From an uncultured Pseudomonadota bacterium (GTDB taxonomy: Bacteria > JAMCPX01), in NCBI GenBank assembly GCA_964547905.1, contig CAZJPN010000050.1, positions 11,049 through 75,048 of the forward strand: DNA of 64,000 nt. The letters are read 5' to 3'. The first letter of the stretch is position 1. Each line of letters begins with the position of its first letter. A model generated the notes under the pieces. That model was not told the origin of the DNA. It made no database searches and saw only the letters and a program-made list of their open reading frames with translations. Below, piece after piece: positions 18,682 to 41,958 of this stretch. Both the position numbers and the translations under genes were made by a program.

Positions 18682-19937
18682 ATCTTAAATATCTTCTTCA
18701 ACAACGTTATATCCTTCAAAACTTCACCTCTTCTATGAACATTCTTTATCTCCGTAATAGGCTCGTGCAGGATCTTATTTACTATACCTCTTGACATGGC
18801 ATCAAGCACTTCTATATCTTTTTTTGCAGGCTTTTCCAACTTTGATATTGCCTCTTTCAATTCCTGCTGCCGTATAGCTTCGAATTTATCTTTCAAAGAT
18901 ACGATCGTTGGAACCAATGATAACTCGCCAAGCCAGTTCAGAAACCTGTTGACCTCTTCCTCTATAAACCGCTCTGCTTCTCCGGCAGCTTTTCCCCTTT
19001 CCCTCATGTTCTGGCTTGTAACACCTTTAAGATCGTCTATATCAAAAAGGAATATGCCTTCAAATGCGGATATCGAAGGCTCTATGTTTCTTGGTACCGA
19101 TATATCTATAAAAAAAAGCGGTTTATGCTGTCGTGCCTTTATTATCTTCGCCATTCTGTCGTTCGTGATAAGGTAATGATCTGCTGATGTGGAGCATATA
19201 ACAATATCGACATCCATAAGTTGATCGTACAACTCGTCAAATTCAACTGCACTGCCCTTTAATCGTCCCGCAAGCTCAGACGCATGCGTATATGTTCTGC
19301 TCAATACGATCAGTTTCGTTGCACCGGCATCCCTGAGATACTTTGCTGCATCCTCTGCCATTTCTCCTGCACCCATAAGGAGTACATTCTTTCCGCCCAA
19401 TCTGCCAAAGATTTTTTTTGCAAGCTCCACGGCGACGGAACTCACGGAAACGGTGTACAACCCAATCGTGGTAAACGTCCTTACCTTTTTTGCCACTCTG
19501 AACGCCCTATGCATAAGCCTGTTTAATATCGGACCTGTCGTGGAATTGTATGATGCGATCTTATAAGCGTCTTTTGTCTGTCCGAGTATCTGTGCCTCTC
19601 CAATAACCATAGAATCAAGGCTGCTTGCGACCCTGAATACATGGGTTACGGCATCCCTGTCTTCATGCATAGAGAGATAAGAAGAGAGTGATTTTTTATC
19701 TATACCTCCGAACCTGCTCATAATGTTCATTATTACATCCATGTTTTTTTCGGCGTCCTCGCAAACGGTATAAAATTCTATACGGTTACATGTTGACAGT
19801 ATGATAGCCTCGCTTATCTCAGGAAAAGACAAAATTTCCTTAAGAATGGAAGGAATCTGTTCTTCCGTAAAGCTGAGTTTTTCTCTCAACTCTACAGGCG
19901 CTGTTTTATGGTTTAATCCTACAACAAGAAGTTTCAT
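18678..19937 (-). CDS. hemA: Glutamyl-tRNA reductase
   Basis: MKLLVVGLNHKTAPVELREKL N-terminus. NADP-binding Rossmann region. 419 aa. Confidence 0.9.
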   Translation of the reverse strand: MKLLVVGLNHKTAPVELREKLSFTEEQIPSILKEILSFPEISEAIILSTCNRIEFYTVCEDAEKNMDVIMNIMSRFGGIDKKSLSSYLSMHEDRDAVTHVFRVASSLDSMVIGEAQILGQTKDAYKIASYNSTTGPILNRLMHRAFRVAKKVRTFTTIGLYTVSVSSVAVELAKKIFGRLGGKNVLLMGAGEMAEDAAKYLRDAGATKLIVLSRTYTHASELAGRLKGSAVEFDELYDQLMDVDIVICSTSADHYLITNDRMAKIIKARQHKPLFFIDISVPRNIEPSISAFEGIFLFDIDDLKGVTSQNMRERGKAAGEAERFIEEEVNRFLNWLGELSLVPTIVSLKDKFEAIRQQELKEAISKLEKPAKKDIEVLDAMSRGIVNKILHEPITEIKNVHRRGEVLKDITLLKKIFKI

Positions 19938-19940
19938 AAC

Positions 19941-20744
19941 TTAAAAATTGTGATAACCTTTGAATATAAAGTTAACCCCTATAAAACTGAATAAAACGAG
20001 CAGGAAACAAAAAATCGACACCCACGCAAACTTTTTCCCCCTCCACCCAAGGCTTATGCGTCCATGAAGTATAAAAATATATGCAAACCATATAATCAGT
20101 GACCAGGTTTCCTTTGGATCCCAGTTCCAGTAGCTTCCGTATATCCTGTCAGCCCATAGGGCACCTGTTATTATACCGAGGGTCAAAAACGGAAAACCTA
20201 TCGTCAATGTCTTATATGCCAGATCGTCGAGTATAAAAAGAGATGGCAGCCATTTTGTAATCCAGATAATGCGTTTATGCTTTAGCCATGTCTCCTGTAA
20301 AATATACATGATTGAAGAAATGAAGGATAACGCAAAAAGGCCATAGGATGTTATCGATAGCAATACATGAATGGGAAATATATCGGTGTTAAAGATGGGG
20401 CTTAATTCTTTTGTGCTGCCCTTCAACAGCATAAATACAATGATCAGTATGATAACGAACGGTGTGGAGAAACCAATGATCGAGGTAGTTCCTCTGAATA
20501 TTACCGATACGAGTATGGCTCCGACAGCAAGCGCCCACGCAAACATAAATATGGCATATTTTAATGAAAAAATGGGGAATATGCCCGAACTTTTGTAGAA
20601 CAACAATAGTATCCCCGTCTGCAAGATAACACCGAGTATAATACCGACAAGTGCAGCTATTTCCAGTTTTTTATCCCTGTAAAAGGCATACCCAATACTC
20701 ATTGCCGCAGCAAGGATATAAAATATAAGCGTTAGTATCATCAT
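19941..20744 (-). CDS. Cytochrome c assembly protein (CcsA/ResC/HemX-like polytopic membrane protein)
   Basis: Eight predicted TM helices with a Trp-rich WxxxW region (…WNWDPKETWSLIIW…). Position within the hem operon. Confidence 0.65.
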   Translation of the reverse strand: MMILTLIFYILAAAMSIGYAFYRDKKLEIAALVGIILGVILQTGILLLFYKSSGIFPIFSLKYAIFMFAWALAVGAILVSVIFRGTTSIIGFSTPFVIILIIVFMLLKGSTKELSPIFNTDIFPIHVLLSITSYGLFALSFISSIMYILQETWLKHKRIIWITKWLPSLFILDDLAYKTLTIGFPFLTLGIITGALWADRIYGSYWNWDPKETWSLIIWFAYIFILHGRISLGWRGKKFAWVSIFCFLLVLFSFIGVNFIFKGYHNF

Positions 20745-20808
20745 TTTAATTCATCAACCTGAAAACCGCATTTATTATTTTCCGATGTTCATACCTCAAG
20801 CTTCACGA

Positions 20809-21474
20809 CTAAAGCCCGGCTATTTTATCTCCCGTAAAGGATGAGATAAAATTATCTATAAACCGCCTTAACGACTTTGAATCATTCTTTTTTATATATC
20901 TTGATAGCCTTCCAATAGAAAGCTTATTGAGCGTCTGTTCAATGTTTACTTTAACTCCGCTTTTCTTTATTTTTAACAACCTGCTTCTAATCTTTATAAT
21001 ACTATGAATGAGTTTCATATATTCCGTATTTAACAATTTATCAATCCTTTTTTTTAATAGTACTGTTGCATAAGGGGCAAGGCCGTTTGTTGAAACCGTT
21101 ATTGTAACCTTGCCTTTTTTCATCATAGCAGGCATTATGAAATCACAATAAACAGGCGTATCAACAACATTTGTGAGGATATGCCGTGGCCTTGTATCCT
21201 GAAAAATTTTTTTGTTTACATAAGTATCGTTCGTAGCCGCATATACAAGATACATACCTGCGAGGTCCGAAGACCTGTACGGCCTTTTTATAAGTTCAAT
21301 CTTATTCTGTATTTTTAATTTTAATACGGGCTTTATAGAAAACGGAGCAACAACCTTTACCCGCGCGCCCGATTTTATCAATTGTACGACTTTCCGGTAT
21401 GCAACACTACCGCCGCCTACAACCAGGCAATGCTTCTTATTTATGTTTAAAGAAATAGGATAATATTTGTTCAA
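20809..21474 (-). CDS. Precorrin-2 dehydrogenase / sirohydrochlorin ferrochelatase (SirC/CysG N-terminal domain type)
   Basis: VVGGGSVAYRKV…SGARVKVVAP NAD-binding motif typical of the sirohaem synthase N-terminal domain. Confidence 0.75.
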   Translation of the reverse strand: MNKYYPISLNINKKHCLVVGGGSVAYRKVVQLIKSGARVKVVAPFSIKPVLKLKIQNKIELIKRPYRSSDLAGMYLVYAATNDTYVNKKIFQDTRPRHILTNVVDTPVYCDFIMPAMMKKGKVTITVSTNGLAPYATVLLKKRIDKLLNTEYMKLIHSIIKIRSRLLKIKKSGVKVNIEQTLNKLSIGRLSRYIKKNDSKSLRRFIDNFISSFTGDKIAGL

Positions 21475-22070
21475 AAGCTGAGCCCGAATCCCATACTGAG
21501 GAATATGCCGTTCATATGTATACTGTCTATCTTTGCTATCGTTACCGGCAGGTACTGATAGCCCATATCGATATTGAATAACCAGCTTGGTAATTGCGAG
21601 CTCATGAGTACATCAGCACCTATGCCTGCCCTGAACCCAAAAGCGGAACTATCGCTGGTTGCCGTACTGTCTGTATACCCGGTGGTTGAACTGATCGTCG
21701 TATAATTTAACAGCGAGAATACATAAGGATCAAAGGGGTAGTTGCTGATCGGGTTTACCCTGACACCGGCATCAAACGAAGGCATAACGGTTATCCTGTC
21801 CACGGCAACACCCTCGCCATTATTCACCATAATAGTCTGGCCTGACTGCTGCGCTGTCCTTCCCCTGAGATCCATGCAAAGCCAGTTATGGTATACGTTG
21901 AAATCATAACCGAGCTGAAACGTTGTCGATGGATCTGAAAGCACACTCAGAGGCTGTGAAAAATTAAGGTTGTCCGAAGAAAGGGTAATCGTACCAGCCT
22001 TTACACCGGTCGCACCCAATACCGTCGCAGACAATATTACCATTATAATAGATATTTTTTTCATTCGGCA
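21471..22070 (-). CDS. Outer-membrane beta-barrel protein
   Basis: Signal peptide MKKISIIMVILSATVLGATGVKA. Beta-strand-rich composition. C-terminal …GFGLSF. Confidence 0.65.
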   Translation of the reverse strand, partial: CRMKKISIIMVILSATVLGATGVKAGTITLSSDNLNFSQPLSVLSDPSTTFQLGYDFNVYHNWLCMDLRGRTAQQSGQTIMVNNGEGVAVDRITVMPSFDAGVRVNPISNYPFDPYVFSLLNYTTISSTTGYTDSTATSDSSAFGFRAGIGADVLMSSQLPSWLFNIDMGYQYLPVTIAKIDSIHMNGIFLSMGFGLSF

Positions 22071-22117
22071 CATCTGTTTCATATTTTTTTAATATACTTC
22101 TTTTTTACCTGACAGTC

Positions 22118-22216
22118 CACCCCGTTAGAAAATTCTCATTATTACATGCATTATAATTTATCATTTAAAAGCCGTCAGACCCGGATACCATTAATTCATA
22201 TATTTTCTAACGGGGT
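22118..22216. repeat. Long-range inverted repeat CCCCGTTAGAAAAT … ATTTTCTAACGGGG (14-bp arms, ~71-nt loop)
   Basis: Perfect 14-bp arms at ~22118-22131 and ~22203-22216, in the spacer downstream of the SARP-like remnant. Confidence 0.55.
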
Positions 22217-22232
22217 AAACCTCTTGACACTC

Positions 22233-25126
22233 TCATACCTGCTTCTTTGATTTTATGATACTTTGATACAGCTCTTTTGTTTTATCCGACGGTTCTATGT
22301 CAAGCGTTTGAGATAAGATCGCTACACAGCGCTTATACGTAGCAACAGCCTCGGCATAGCGGCCCAGAGATTTATAGATTATCATCAGACACTGGTAAAA
22401 AAGCTCTACGTGGTTATCCGCTTCTAAACTTTTTTGATATGTTAAGATTGCATTGCGCATCTCTCCGGCACCATCATAATACATGCCCAATTGTTCAATA
22501 AAACGTGTAAACCTGTCGTGCAACTTTTCTCTAAAACTTATAGCCCATGATGGGAGTGCATCCTGTGTAAAAAAATCTCCTCTATATGTGTCAAAGATGC
22601 GCCTTTCCATGGCTTTAATCTCTTTCTGCTTTTTTGATAAGTCCTTACCGGTTAACAGTGACTCCATTTTGTCTAAAAGATGCTCAAATGCCCGCACATC
22701 CACCCAGCATTTTTTTGTATTCAGCATAAGCCTGCCTGCCTGTGAAATCACGGCATCATTGGAACCGAGCAGTTTCCTTAACCTATGGATGGTCGTTTCC
22801 AATGTCTGGTGGGCATAATCACCCTGGGCCTCTGGCCACAAAGCGCTGCTTATTTGATCAAGCCCGACTGCTCTTTCATAATTAATGATCATGAATTGCA
22901 GCAACTCGATGGGCTTAAGCTGTGCTTTCCTGGATAATGCAATCTGCGTATCTTCCTTAAAAATCTTAAAATTGCCGAGGGTATAAAACCTAAACGCCTA
23001 TGGCCAATCTTCGCATCCCAGGGGAGGCGTGTCAGGCATAAGGTTGCGCCTCTCTATAAGACTTCTGACATACTCTTTTTTGATTCCATGCTCAAGTGCC
23101 TTGACACAGAGCCGTGCCATGACAGACGGACGCCAGCCCGGAAAGTTTACATATCCCATATCCTGCCCGAGCTGCATTGCCCTGCGGAGAAATCTCAAAC
23201 CCGATCGTTCTTTGTTTTGATCAAACGCAAACAAGGCTTTTACGACAAGATACATATATCTGAAATGCCTCTGTTTGCTGACGATTCGAGACGTTTTGTT
23301 GAGATAGTACAATGCCATGGTATCGTCCGAAAGTTCATGCAGACCTGAGCCATTTGTACAGAGCTCATTACCATCAGATTTACGTCGCCTGATTCGATAG
23401 CCGGGGTCATGCCCATGTTCTGGATGTTGTATGCAGAAGCAAAATCCTCTCTCATCATTGCCTCCTCGGTTAATTTCATATAATAGGTGGCACGATCATA
23501 AACTCCTGTCTGATCTATGGTTTTAGAAATCTTTTGTAAAAACTGTCTTCCAAGCGGGATATTCCCGGTGCTCATCATCCATGCGGCACCAAACGATATG
23601 AGCATATGATCCATGACGTGTATCTCCGTGGTTTCGGCTAACTGTATCCCATCATTTAATGCCTTGAATTCAGGGTCAGAAGCTACGGTATAATAGTTGT
23701 AGAGGACTTCTATGATTTTAAATACAAGGAACGTCATAGGAGATATCCGGTTTGAATACTCCAGGTCTTTCAACGGTGGCAGGACCGTTTCCTCCATTCG
23801 GATATCACCTATTGTTGAGAAGTGAAGGGCTATATTGGTACTTAACTGTACTCTCATATCGGGGTTATTCGTGTTTTGTAAAATAAGCACAGCTCATTTC
23901 AGCCATTTTTTAATCCTGGGATTGTATTGCTGTCTGAAATTCAGGGCGTAAAACATCTTGATTACCGCTATTTCTTCTGTTTTTGTGGCAGGAAAGCCCT
24001 TCCATTTTTTCACAAGCTTTTCCATAATATTGATCCATGGATCGTGAAGCCTTAACTTTCCAAACCCATACGTGATGGAATCGGAAACCCCGGTCCATGC
24101 TATAAATATTCCGTTCCTGTCTTTATTCTTTGTGAACAGCTTGAATGACTTCTTAAAAAGAACATAGCTCTCTTCGGGATTGAATGGCAGTCTGCATGCG
24201 CCGAGCCAGTATTGTAACCATGGATTACCCTCTATGATATCATCCGGTAAAGCCTTAAGCCATGCCTCCAACGTACGGTTTCTACCTTGTGAAATAAGAT
24301 CAAATGCGTTTTTAAGTATTAACCTTACAGCTTCGGACCAGTCCTTGGATTGCAAAAAAAGCGTGACCGCATCCTCAACATATCCCGATTCTTCCAATAC
24401 CTTTGCGGCATTTTGTTGAATTCCCGTGAGCTTTTCGTAATTCCACCTGCTCCGCGTCTTCGATAGCAGGAATTCCCTGAACAGGTCATGGTACTTGTAG
24501 GTATTGTCCTGATGCTTGATGGTAAAATAATGAGAGCCGATAAGGTGAGCGAGATCTTATCGGATGATTGTTTCCCCGCCATCCGATTCGCCATCTTCAC
24601 GGTCATGGACGGAAAAAAAGGACGCTCGCAGGAGGAAATCCTGTGCCGACGGATCCGTTTTATCGAAAATCTCGGCTGAAAAATAATCAAAGATCGATTG
24701 ATAGTCCTTCAGACCGCCCTTTCCGACGGCCTCTACCCCCATCTTGTGCTGTTCAAGCATAAGCACGAGTCCGGCAGCCCAGCCGTCTGTCCAATTGTGC
24801 AGCTTCTCTACCGTCTCCCGGTTGTGACCATTGCCGGAACGCAGTTTGATCAGTGCTCCCGTTTCATCGGGCGTAAACTTGATCTCCTCATTGCTGACGA
24901 CAGCCAGCACGCTGTCTTCCCTCAGACGCGAGAATATGCCGGGAGGTTCCGTCCGGCTGATCACCATGACATTGCCGCTCGCGGGAATCCTCATCAAAGC
25001 CTCATTCAGAACATTATGGAACGCGGAGTTACCGTTGATCTCATGATAATTATCAAACATGAGGACAAAACCTTCGGGCAGCATGCCGTAAAGGCTCTCA
25101 AAAAATCTATGCGTATATGTGCCGAT
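22233..25126 (-). pseudogene. Decayed large regulator: MalT-like STAND NTPase plus helical repeats fused to a C-terminal SARP-type wHTH-BTAD; 5'-truncated, three in-frame nonsense codons and one frameshift
   Basis: Reverse-strand reading gives a MalT-like Walker B (FVLMFDNYHEI), TDGWAAGLVLM…, SHYFTIKHQDNTYKYHDLFREFLL and WLQYWLGACRL. The same frame then runs into FRFYTLGNFKIF…LKPIELLQFMIINYERAVGLDQISSALWPEA (OmpR/SARP wHTH) and a BTAD helical domain. In-frame stops: TAA at 24557-59, TGA at 23894-96 and TAG at ~22995-97. There is a frame change within 23240-23318. No P-loop can fit before the upstream stop at ~25127. Confidence 0.6.
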
Positions 25127-25184
25127 TTATAGCCAACAAAGATAGATTTTTTTTATTGTATGCGGTAGAAAAAGTCAATGCAAC

Positions 25185-25211
25185 TCAAAAGAAATGCATT
25201 TTTTCGGGTTA
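25185..25211. repeat. Post-stop palindromic element, copy at the ABC permease 3' end
   Basis: gaaaTGCATTTTTTCGGGTTAAtg. The TTA at 25209-11 is the permease stop codon. Confidence 0.7.
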
Positions 25212-26033
25212 ATGTATCAGGGTTGGATACAGGCGTCTTGCTGTCAGGAGAAAAACGATAAAAACGAACACCATGACAACGAGATCAAAACCAAAGCTGT
25301 GAACGCTCTGCCCGCCTTTAATCATGAGGCTACGAAGAGCATCTACAAGATACGTCAATGGATTAAATCTCGCAAACCACCGCAGCCATGGAGGCATGAG
25401 TTCGAGCGGATAGATCGCATTACTCGCAAAGAAAAGCGGCATCGTCAGAATCTGCCCTATTCCCATAAAGCGCTCGCGGGTTTTTACTATGCAGGCAATT
25501 ATCAGCGAAAAGGTAGAAAAAATAGCAGATCCCAGAACAACGCTCAATAAAACACCGCCTATTGCCCATGGCTCCCAACGCAGCGAAATACCCATGGCAA
25601 GCGCTATAAAATAAATAATTACCACTTGCACCAATCCCCTGAATCCTGATGAAACCGCTTTTCCCAGGACAAGTGAAATACGATGTGCAGGGCTTACCAT
25701 AAGCTTGTGGATAATTCCGAGGTCCCTTTCCCAAATAACGGCAATACCATAGAATATGGCGCTGAACAACACGCTTTGGGCAAGGATGCCGGGGGTCATG
25801 AAGGCAATATAACTTACCTGACCTGTCGGTATGCCCCGGACCCGGCTGAATACCTGCCCGAATATCACAAGCCACAACACAGGCTGGACCGCACGCGTAA
25901 AGAGCTCGGTAGGATCACGAACAAGCTTCTTTATTTCAACCTCGGAGATGGCCAGGCTTTCTCTGAAAAACTCAACAAGGAAAAAAGAACTAAGCCAGGC
26001 GGTTTGCCGTTCTGCGTGTTTTTCTGACATCAC
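25209..26033 (-). CDS. ABC-2 type transporter permease
   Basis: Six TM helices. ABC-2 family pattern. Overlaps the upstream ATPase gene. Confidence 0.8.
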   Translation of the reverse strand: MMSEKHAERQTAWLSSFFLVEFFRESLAISEVEIKKLVRDPTELFTRAVQPVLWLVIFGQVFSRVRGIPTGQVSYIAFMTPGILAQSVLFSAIFYGIAVIWERDLGIIHKLMVSPAHRISLVLGKAVSSGFRGLVQVVIIYFIALAMGISLRWEPWAIGGVLLSVVLGSAIFSTFSLIIACIVKTRERFMGIGQILTMPLFFASNAIYPLELMPPWLRWFARFNPLTYLVDALRSLMIKGGQSVHSFGFDLVVMVFVFIVFLLTARRLYPTLIH

Positions 26034-26823
26034 GGTAATTCCCTCCTTCCTCTATAACGCCTCCACTGTAATGGACAAATACATCATCCAGATTGGCATC
26101 TGTTCCCACGGAGGCTTTCAGATCAGCGGGGCTTCCGGATATTGTAATTTTACCCCGGTGTATGAGGGCTATCTCATCGCAAAGCCTGTCAGCCTCTTCC
26201 ATGTCATGCGTGGTTATCAGTATCGTCATTCCGTACTCTTTCTTCAATGCGATAAGCCGTTCCCAGACCACCCGACGTGCAACAGGATCCAATCCTATGG
26301 TAGGCTCATCAAGGAATAAAACAGCAGGCAGGTGAAGCATTGCCTGCGCCAGTTCGAGCCTCCGGATCATGCCGCCTGAATAAGTCTTTACAAGCTTATT
26401 TGAAGACTCCGTGAGATTCATAAAATTGAGTGCATCCGCAACTCTTGCTTTTCGATCATAGCGTTTCATACCATACAGTTTTGCCGAGAGCATGAGGTTT
26501 TCATAAGCAGTGAGACCTCCATCCGCAGAAAGCATCTGAGGTACATATCCAATCCTTTTTCTCACCTCTTTTGAGGATAAATTTACATCGAAACCTGCAA
26601 CCATTGCAGTGCCTGACATAGGATCAAGAAGTGTCGTCAACATTTTGATCGTGGTACTTTTACCTGCACCGTTAGGACCGATCAAACCAAAGATCTTTCC
26701 ATACGGGACATGAAGATCCATTGAATCGACAGCAACAAAATCGCCGAACTTCCGTGTGAGTTTATTCGTTTCGATTGCCCATAAAGAAAGTGGAGGTATT
26801 TTTTTATTGTCTGAATCCGACAT
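25990..26823 (-). CDS. ABC transporter ATP-binding protein (DrrA-like exporter ATPase)
   Basis: Walker A GPNGAGKST, signature LSGGM-like YSGGMIRRL, Walker B VLFLDEPT. Confidence 0.88.
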   Translation of the reverse strand: MSDSDNKKIPPLSLWAIETNKLTRKFGDFVAVDSMDLHVPYGKIFGLIGPNGAGKSTTIKMLTTLLDPMSGTAMVAGFDVNLSSKEVRKRIGYVPQMLSADGGLTAYENLMLSAKLYGMKRYDRKARVADALNFMNLTESSNKLVKTYSGGMIRRLELAQAMLHLPAVLFLDEPTIGLDPVARRVVWERLIALKKEYGMTILITTHDMEEADRLCDEIALIHRGKITISGSPADLKASVGTDANLDDVFVHYSGGVIEEGGNYRDVRKTRRTANRLA

Positions 26824-26840
26824 CTTGATTCTATCCTGTC

Positions 26841-27320
26841 TTATACTTTTTTATCTTTGCTCGGTACATGAACAACTTTATTATCAATTGAAAAAAGCCC
26901 TTCGAGTTCGTTTAATCCTTGTAAAAGAGCTTTGCGGTTTTTTGAATCCAGCATTGAAACCTTTTTACTGAGCCTATTTTCTGCTGCGGTTTTTATCTGA
27001 TTGAAAAGTGCAATGCCCATATTTGTCAGTCTGAGAGGGGACTTCCTGCGATCAGCAGCATCATGACTTCTCTCTATGAACCCTCGCCTTACCAGAGTTT
27101 CTACACTTCTGGACATGGATGGCTGACTCACTCCGTGGTGCTGTGCAATCTCGTTTATGAGCGTCCTTCCTCGTATGATACTACCAAGTATCCGGAAATG
27201 AGGAACACTCAAATCCGCTGGAATGCATGATCGCATCTCGGCACGTACACGCGCCATGGAGAGCGGTATTATTTCCAAAAGTCTTTTTGCTATTTTAGTC
27301 TCGTTTTGCATATATAACAT
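26841..27320 (-). CDS. MarR-family transcriptional regulator
   Basis: wHTH region …LINEIAQHHGVSQPSMSRSVETLVRRGFIERSHDAADRRKSPLRLT…, typical MarR. First gene of the marR-ABC operon. Confidence 0.8.
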   Translation of the reverse strand: MLYMQNETKIAKRLLEIIPLSMARVRAEMRSCIPADLSVPHFRILGSIIRGRTLINEIAQHHGVSQPSMSRSVETLVRRGFIERSHDAADRRKSPLRLTNMGIALFNQIKTAAENRLSKKVSMLDSKNRKALLQGLNELEGLFSIDNKVVHVPSKDKKV

Positions 27321-27393
27321 TGTTAATATGTAATATTGTTATATAATTGTCAAGAAGTATCTATCGAATGGCTTTGTTGGACAGCAGGTTTGA

Positions 27394-28230
27394 TTACTTG
27401 GAATCGGTGATAATTCTGGTAAACATATTAAACGGTACAAACTCAAAATATCTGTTTGAAATCGTAATAAATTTATTTTTAAATTCCGTCAACTCTTCCG
27501 CAGGCTTATTCAAAATAACAAACCTGCCGCTTAATTCTTCCGGCACGATCTTTTCCGTTCCGCACAAGCCGTACAAATGCACCCCTCTTCTTTTACATAT
27601 TTCAGCTATTGCAAGTGAACCCGTTTTGCAGACAAATCCGTCCCTATGAATTGCGTCCCCGCCGATAAGGACTGCATCAATATCTCCAGAAGCAAGCATG
27701 CTGATACCCGCTGCGTCTGTTGCGTACGTGACGGGTATCGACAGATTTGCAAGTTGTATCATCATATGAGCGCCTTCATTCATGGGCCTTGATTCAAGGA
27801 CTACAACCCTGAACTTTGAACCATGCCCGTATGCGTATTTCAAACCTGCAAGAACTGTAGAACTCGATGAATATGTCATCACTGTTTTACTTTTTTTAAG
27901 CAAACCCGATACTTTTGCCGCAATAATATTGGTATGTGTTTCTATTGCTGCTTCGAACCTATCAAGATAGAGTAAAATATTGTTGCGTTCAGCAGTGCCT
28001 GCCAGTTTCCCAATACCGGATGCAAGATTAAGCATAATACCCATGGAAGGCTGGGAAGATATAAGTTGTTCGGATATCAGTTTGCATAAATGGGCAGATA
28101 CTCTCGTATTTTTACGTTTGATAATGCTCCTTATACGTTCGATGGCATTTAAAGCTATCCGTACAGACCCCGAGGTGTTATCATTCGTTAAATGCTTTGA
28201 TAATCTTTCTATATCATGAACAGAACTCAT
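27394..28230 (-). CDS. Initiation factor 2B-related family protein (eIF-2B alpha/beta/delta / MtnA / ribose-1,5-bisphosphate isomerase superfamily)
   Basis: C-terminal …VLIGGDAIHRDGFVCKTGSLAIAEICKRRGVHLYGLCGTEKIV… matches the IF-2B family core. 278 aa. GAGGGAG RBS. Confidence 0.55.
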   Translation of the reverse strand: MSSVHDIERLSKHLTNDNTSGSVRIALNAIERIRSIIKRKNTRVSAHLCKLISEQLISSQPSMGIMLNLASGIGKLAGTAERNNILLYLDRFEAAIETHTNIIAAKVSGLLKKSKTVMTYSSSSTVLAGLKYAYGHGSKFRVVVLESRPMNEGAHMMIQLANLSIPVTYATDAAGISMLASGDIDAVLIGGDAIHRDGFVCKTGSLAIAEICKRRGVHLYGLCGTEKIVPEELSGRFVILNKPAEELTEFKNKFITISNRYFEFVPFNMFTRIITDSK

Positions 28231-41712: not shown

Positions 41713-41754
41713 CACTTGACTATAAAAATAATTTCTACATAATGAAGTCTTCAT

Positions 41755-41827
<73 letters not shown>

Positions 41828-41958
41828 TTTTGCTTTTCAATAGATTAGTCGATCCTCTCTACGTCTCAATTCACTCCTGCTACCGTTTTTGCTATAATAT
41901 TGTTGAAACTCTGTTAACCCAAAAACCTTATCTCTTTAAAATTTGTAGCCTCGCCTCA

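Follow-up and report, generated by a model that had tools for sequence, protein, structure and literature searches.

Established knowledge of MalT and AfsR was the basis of the analogy drawn herein, under which the protein in question would be an ATP/ligand-gated oligomerising switch. The characterised SARP classes (small, medium, large, and SARP-LAL) always carry their SARP domain N-terminally, and small SARPs (~300 aa) consist of a DNA-binding domain (DBD) plus BTAD (PMC10972967). The window (the whole 64,000-nucleotide stretch of DNA analysed) harbored a broken relative of these systems on its minus strand at 22233–25126, and this region is very probably a unitary pseudogene: a copy, inactivated recently and no longer functional, of a cytoplasmic transcription activator of ~1070 aa that transduced signals.

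The sequence comparison was applied to the intact orthologue found at the syntenic position in L008 (a 102.7-kb contig from JGI 3300047583), together with MalT and AfsR. The orthologue and MalT/LAL regulators shared the N-terminal part: its first ~410 residues aligned end-to-end with the NTPase and winged-helix arm of MalT (PDB 8bob, E 1.3e-23; orthologue residues 8–408), with Walker A and Walker B at equivalent positions and a MalT-type TPR sensor region after this part, and the NCBIfam MalT model matched residues 11–410 (E 1e-53, far under its equivalog cut-off: 183 vs 537 bits). They differed in output, which was SARP winged helix-turn-helix (wHTH) plus BTAD in the orthologue family, while it is a LuxR-type HTH in MalT; domain search gave no C-terminal LuxR/GerE match in the last piece of the window copy or in the orthologue, and Trans_reg_C and BTAD were found there instead. 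The window copy further differed from MalT in being broken and in having no P-loop. The orthologue and AfsR or other large Streptomyces SARPs (SARP-NOD-TPR) shared the same three module kinds, namely SARP domain, STAND NTPase, and TPR repeats; AfsR 22–285 (PDB 8hvr, 8k60, and 8jke) aligned with the last 250 residues of the orthologue, and the NCBIfam AfsR model matched residues 817–1066. However, the SARP module was C-terminal in the orthologue (residues 813–1065 of 1069, as aligned with the AfsR SARP domain) but N-terminal in AfsR, the NTPase was MalT-type rather than NB-ARC-type, and the window host, which HemA homologues place in an uncultured 'Deltaproteobacteria'/Thermodesulfobacteriota-like lineage, was not an actinomycete. 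Pfam placed AAA_16/NPHP3_N at residues 22–163, TPR_MalT at 621–765, Trans_reg_C at 843–895, and BTAD at 914–1062 of the orthologue, and the family domain order on it was AAA_16/NPHP3_N, WHD_MalT, TPR_MalT, Trans_reg_C, and BTAD; the order guessed in the preliminary description from the broken copy (STAND ATPase, helical repeats, and then a C-terminal SARP wHTH–BTAD) was thus the right one.

The same description had called this architecture unusual, and the database search spoke against that. The concatenated conceptual translation of the window copy had 961 homologues, the best 120 of which were essentially full-length proteins of 683–1133 aa (all but one at least 936 aa) with the same precomputed domain set (AAA_16/AAA_22/NPHP3_N, WHD_MalT, TPR_MalT, Trans_reg_C, and BTAD), and nearly all of these 120 covered 97–100% of the query. 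They belonged to a family of ~1000–1130 aa distributed in Deltaproteobacteria, Nitrospirota, and other metagenome-assembled genomes (MAGs), and they were already named as 'BTAD domain-containing putative transcriptional regulator' or 'MalT/DNA-binding SARP family transcriptional activator'. Once repaired, the window copy was a full-length member of this family except for the first 105 residues, showing 35–57% identity over 97–100% of the length to nearly all of the best 120, with one partial member covering 59%; as it stands, it is a pseudogene, unlike the family members. The C-terminal SARP arrangement is thus common in sequence databases, with hundreds of automatically named full-length members, and unusual only against the experimentally studied SARPs. 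No experimentally characterised member of this C-terminal-SARP, MalT-NTPase family was found in the SARP literature searched; the family is a large one so far named by automatic annotation only. The genomic contexts of distant members were not conserved: no conserved partner genes were found around the two members P0001 and P0007, and, because these gene contexts were unrelated, no target regulon could be proposed.

The region 22233–25126 was flanked by the genes for an ABC-2 permease and for a small outer-membrane beta-barrel protein and was listed as five successive minus-strand ORFs: ORF 1 (24557–25084), ORF 2 (23894–24397), ORF 3 (23240–23890), ORF 4 (22998–23318), and ORF 5 (22233–22904). 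Three-frame translation and tblastn bore out the preliminary description in that these ORFs made up one long collinear MalT-like/SARP reading from 25126 to 22233, split by stops and frame changes. The pseudogene body corresponded to the intact orthologue from codon 106 through codon 1069 and the stop, as defined by tblastn with 120 homologues and by frameshift-aware alignments against the homologues P0001, P0002, and P0007 and the L008 protein; homologue residues 106–1062/1069 were collinear with window 25126–22236 in this end-to-end homology, and the 120 homologues matched nowhere else in the window by tblastn. Three parts of the ancestral protein could be recognised in the body: (i) the Walker B region FVLMFDNYHEI (25037–25069, minus strand), which aligned via the orthologue with YLVIDDYHLI of E. 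coli MalT; (ii) a remnant of the OmpR/SARP-type wHTH (Pfam Trans_reg_C, E 5.8e-07) at 22758–22916, corresponding to residues 28–80 of the last piece; and (iii) a BTAD remnant (Pfam, E 1.3e-16) at 22257–22703. Both Pfam matches exceeded their gathering scores, and BTAD followed directly on the wHTH, as is the rule for SARPs; the motifs quoted in the preliminary description were present, and the Walker B motif and the C-terminal SARP-type module had both been noticed there. When the separate fragments were submitted to Pfam, only this last piece was recognised and the NTPase and TPR pieces gave no match, so the homology of the latter two was seen only with the concatenated translation.

The genes flanking the region were intact in ORF and alignment, and all of them lay on the minus strand: MarR regulator (26841–27320), ABC ATPase (25990–26823), and ABC-2 permease (25209–26033) upstream, and the small outer-membrane beta-barrel protein (OMP_b-brl; 21471–22082) downstream. 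The remainder of the window was made up of housekeeping genes that were long and intact, among them leuA/C/B, asd, hem genes, polA, mutL, and bamA/tamB, and all other ORFs terminated normally under code 11; this excludes decay across the whole genome as well as a non-standard genetic code. The promoter/terminator scan gave counts not above those of shuffled sequence. The sole match in the Rfam and tRNA scans of the window was a tRNA-Phe at 41754–41828, which was unrelated to the pseudogene.

L008 was reached by way of two neighbouring proteins, ABC ATPase and CcsB, and their clusters at 90% identity, the best match in the protein homologue search itself being 57%. It carried an intact 1069-aa regulator from a TTG start and the same flanking genes in identical order: TamB, BamA-like, SurA_N, RimK, acyl-CoA dehydrogenase, IF-2B-like, MarR, ABC ATPase, ABC-2 permease, regulator, OMP_b-brl, NAD_binding_7, CcsB, HemA, HemC, etc. 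The window and L008 showed ~90% nucleotide identity inside the regulator gene and 94–97% in the flanks. The same intact allele was present in L011 from a sister sample. The more distant MAG clean1809 (contigs L005 and L006) contained an 80%-identical copy, which had an intact upstream region and N-terminus with GLPGSGKTT, was intact at three of the sites broken in the window (the TGA, third-frameshift, and TAG sites; see below), and was preceded in tandem by a 47%-identical paralogue. An intact orthologue with the same domain order, which the preliminary description had suggested looking for, was thus found in L008 and, as the same allele, in L011. Premature stops and indels were restricted to the regulator gene, and no frameshift or premature stop was seen in any other complete gene of the alignment with L008.

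Alignment of the window copy against L008 as the reference, with the clean1809 copy (L005) as the second comparison, placed six lesions, namely one large deletion (333 nt), three indels of a single nucleotide, and two nonsense codons. Outside these lesions, window 25126–22236 and L008 residues 106–1069 aligned without gaps at 85% amino acid identity. The intact orthologue at the syntenic position and the simple kinds of mutation that separate it from the window copy are as expected for a pseudogene.

Lesion 1 was the 333-nt deletion, whose junction (25125–25127, minus strand) was set by blastn blocks and manual inspection, since global MAFFT alignment put the deletion in a wrong place. It corresponded to L008 11700–12032 and took away the Shine–Dalgarno sequence GGGAGGG, the TTG start, and codons 1–105, which include Walker A GLPGSGKTT (assigned via alignment to MalT 8bob); its junction displayed 1–3 nt microhomology. 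The P-loop (Walker A, GxxGxGKT) that characterises the family was accordingly absent, and because the codons bearing it were deleted, the locus was assigned as a pseudogene of the family and not as a functional member. Absence of Walker A had been noted before from the short distance between the homology and the stop codon of the ABC-2 permease (82 nt, 25127–25208). The missing N-terminus stands as described, and its cause is corrected here to a clean internal deletion that retained the upstream intergenic DNA: 25127–25208 was homologous to the regions upstream of the regulator in L008 and L006, and it contained a length-variable A8/A9 tract at 25147–25154.

Lesions 2 and 3 were two frameshifts of opposite sign: (i) a +1 T insertion at 24613–24619, turning T6 in L008 into T7, and (ii) a 1-nt deletion at 24553–24554 (L008 GATAAGATACTC vs window GATAAGATCTC), restoring the original frame. 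Read in its other frame, the segment 24619–24553 encoded FFPSMTVKMANRMAGKQSSDKI, which matched the homologues, while the uncorrected frame gave unrelated sequence and then TAA. This TAA (24559–24557) lay inside the 22-codon out-of-frame stretch that lesions 2 and 3 enclose in the frameshift-aware alignment, and hence it was not an independent mutation. Lesion 4 was a TGA at 23896–23894 replacing Arg516 (CGT in L008 and CGA in L005), lesion 5 was a 1-nt (T) deletion at 23340–23344 giving the third frameshift, and lesion 6 was a TAG at 23000–22998 replacing conserved Trp815 (TGG in both L005 and L008). Of the three different in-frame stops proposed previously, TGA and TAG were therefore true nonsense codons and TAA was a consequence of the +1 shift; the single frame change proposed inside 23240–23318 gave way to three single-base frameshifts, the last of which (~23341–23344) fell just outside that bracket. 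Plain tblastn with the closest homologues matched residues ~106–700 to 25126–23342 and residues ~701 to the end to 23342–22240 in another frame; it missed the first two frameshifts because the shifted stretch of 22 codons was short, and these were revealed by custom frameshift-aware protein-to-DNA alignment. The locus thus offers a worked example of lesion mapping, in which an apparent in-frame stop was the by-product of two flanking frameshifts of opposite sign. The three 1-nt indels, together with the TGA and TAG, left the window copy no single uninterrupted reading frame, and from its sequence a full-length product would not be possible.

The contig was metagenome-derived and one lesion resided in a homopolymer, which would suit the view that errors of sequencing or assembly produced the stops and frameshifts and that the organism itself carries an intact gene. 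The lesions were hence compared with separately assembled contigs (Logan assemblies) from runs SRR12217121, SRR12217122, and SRR12217123, recovered by exact-protein look-ups. L003 (SRR12217123) was 100% identical across 19345–26238; L004 (SRR12217122) was identical over 22015–25323 save A9 in the intergenic tract where the window has A8; and L002 and L015 (both SRR12217121) jointly spanned 27473–23442, with the same A8/A9 tract as the sole difference and with 100% identity of L015 over 23442–24647. The assembly of L002 ended 14 nt before the T-run, a further point in favour of an artefact, but L015 overlapped L002 and continued with the same T7. Assembly error is excluded as the source of the lesions because they recurred in independent assemblies of three runs. 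These runs have consecutive accessions and may represent one population; a fixed artefact of the sequencing platform is unlikely for the substitutions. Four separately assembled contigs with the same sequence at the lesions, error types as atypical as a 333-nt deletion and two substitutions, and ~17 kb of adjacent coding sequence free of such errors together make an artefactual origin extremely improbable.

Genuine decay of the gene, which the preliminary description had preferred to stop-codon recoding, was strongly supported by the syntenic intact orthologue (L008 and L011), by L005/L006, and by the repeated recovery of the lesions. Bypass of the stops and frameshifts into a functional protein would take TGA as selenocysteine, TAG as pyrrolysine or a suppressed codon, and programmed or transcriptional slippage at T7, and the T-run might otherwise act as a reversible phase-variation switch. 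T7 is indeed a slippage-prone type of sequence, and the stop codons were of different kinds; however, the orthologues had Arg and Trp at the stop sites rather than Cys/Sec or Lys/Pyl, the two other indels were outside slippery runs, and every other ORF in the window ended normally under code 11. Above all, start codon, ribosome-binding site, and P-loop were irreversibly lost with the 333-nt deletion; for this reason recoding is effectively refuted, leaving it a negligible probability, and phase variation via the T-run was likewise rejected.

Genuine decay could still have left a functional piece. The 3′-terminal ORF (22233–22904 from a TTG start or 22233–22892 from an ATG start; 219–223 aa) retained the BTAD in full and the greater part of the wHTH, it ran open as far as its natural stop, and it is predicted by gene callers; it might therefore be a stand-alone, sensor-less small SARP akin to the known ~300-aa SARPs with DBD and BTAD (PMC10972967), the other fragments perhaps being separate bona fide genes as well. 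The 3′ third was also 93–100% identical in nucleotide sequence to the intact orthologue, with dN/dS of 0.37 after the TAG. Nevertheless, the orthologues carried one unbroken ORF over all the breaks, and independent small genes were rejected on this ground, homology pointing to a single continuous orthologue ORF in place of the separate genes that had been considered as an objection. Moreover, the 3′ ORF started ~30 codons into the DNA-binding domain, with loss of the N-terminal beta-strands (AFRFYTLGNFKIF...), and no Shine–Dalgarno-like sequence preceded its TTG or ATG start; the high 3′ identity was explained by a recombination-like mosaic that was present in neighbouring genes too, and the 17 substitutions in the 3′ part were too few to demonstrate selection. 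A surviving small SARP is thus very unlikely, and there is a slim chance that the 3′ ORF is still expressed, giving a SARP-like factor that has no sensor and acts constitutively.

With the whole locus taken as a pseudogene, its age was assessed by comparison with L008. In the protein-guided codon alignment, dN/dS was 0.29 overall (0.27 in the 5′ part and 0.32 in the 3′ part), values that are well below 1 and would also fit residual selection on fragments, and the intact neighbours had dN/dS of 0.05–0.43 against L008. Nonsynonymous and synonymous changes on the two branches (outgroup clean1809) were 64/50 for the window and 56/45 for L008 (Fisher p = 1). Because dN/dS of 0.29 and the branch counts resemble the intact state, inactivation seems recent relative to the split from L008. 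A modest sign of relaxed constraint, and the only one, came from highly conserved sites (positions shared by six or more of eight distant homologues), at which window-specific changes numbered 18 and L008-specific changes 5 (binomial p = 0.011, in an alignment with a few gap artefacts). The gene was mosaic in its identity to L008, with the 5′ two-thirds being 80–90% and the 3′ third 93–100% identical at the nucleotide level, and neighbouring genes were similarly variable (91.6% to 98.8%); this pattern suggests recombination between strains. As a pseudogene of a common regulator family, the window copy is young and ordinary.

If it worked as MalT and AfsR do, the ancestral protein would have used its N-terminal STAND NTPase, MalT-type winged helix, and TPR sensor arm to pass between an ADP-bound off state and an ATP/ligand-bound oligomeric on state; in the on state, the C-terminal SARP wHTH–BTAD would have been released to bind direct repeats in promoters and recruit RNA polymerase. 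In the window lineage, the gene lost its ribosome-binding site, start codon, and P-loop by one microhomology-flanked deletion of 333 nt, and it gained three 1-nt indels (one of which fell in a run of six T) as well as two nonsense mutations of the transition type. The pseudogene carries little weight alone, being a single decayed accessory regulator in an otherwise intact chromosomal region. The window and JGI 3300047583 nonetheless form a natural knock-out/intact allele pair for the 'inverted AfsR' class, and a population comparison could reveal the regulon.

A second kind of loss was observed in the related contig L010 (~87% nucleotide identity), from which the whole MarR/ABC/ABC/regulator/OMP block was absent; of the ABC ATPase gene, 135 nt were left behind, which argues for an independent loss by deletion. 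Decay in the window and deletion of the whole cassette in L010 point to a MarR/ABC-2/regulator/OMP block that is dispensable and repeatedly lost.

The gene-by-gene divergence comparison was applied to window 16332-36822 and its closest relative L008, a JGI metagenome contig carrying an intact syntenic regulator orthologue. Divergence was mosaic, varying from gene to gene: (i) 91.6% nucleotide identity in the ABC ATPase gene, (ii) 98.8% in the ABC-2 permease gene, and (iii) 80-90% in the 5′ two-thirds and 93-100% in the 3′ third of the regulator pseudogene, with the identity break near window 23330-23345. This pattern of sequence identity suggests homologous recombination between strains as the source of the mosaic. 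The orthologue in L008 (85% identical) was reached only via its neighbouring genes, and the best identity among regulator homologues from a large protein-database search was 57%.

The non-coding region upstream of the regulator gene (window 25127-25200; L008 11616-11699; L006 2848-2908) was conserved in all three lineages, still with 76% nucleotide identity between the window and L006, a contig from the distant MAG clean1809. Within it lay TGCATT...TGCATTGACTTT...CATAC.ATAA, which may be a promoter or operator; the 333-nt deletion that removed the 5′ end of the pseudogene left this region and motif in place. A poly-A tract in the intergenic DNA that precedes the pseudogene (window 25147-25154) was A8 in the window and SRR12217123 and A9 in SRR12217121 and SRR12217122, the sole difference among independent assemblies at this locus.

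L010, a relative with ~87% nucleotide identity, was devoid of the entire MarR/ABC ATPase/ABC-2 permease/regulator/OMP cassette at L010 2143-2431 (GCA_013285365.1, JABEBX010022037.1; counterpart window 21485-27402), but it kept a 135-nt remnant of the ABC ATPase gene (matching window 26587-26721), and thus the cassette was lost there independently, by deletion.

In L006 1-3544 (DAHXOM010000035.1), a regulator paralogue (47% identical) was located directly upstream of the orthologue in tandem; the paralogue 3′ end, together with the DNA just beyond its stop codon, had 81% nucleotide identity to window 22218-22343.
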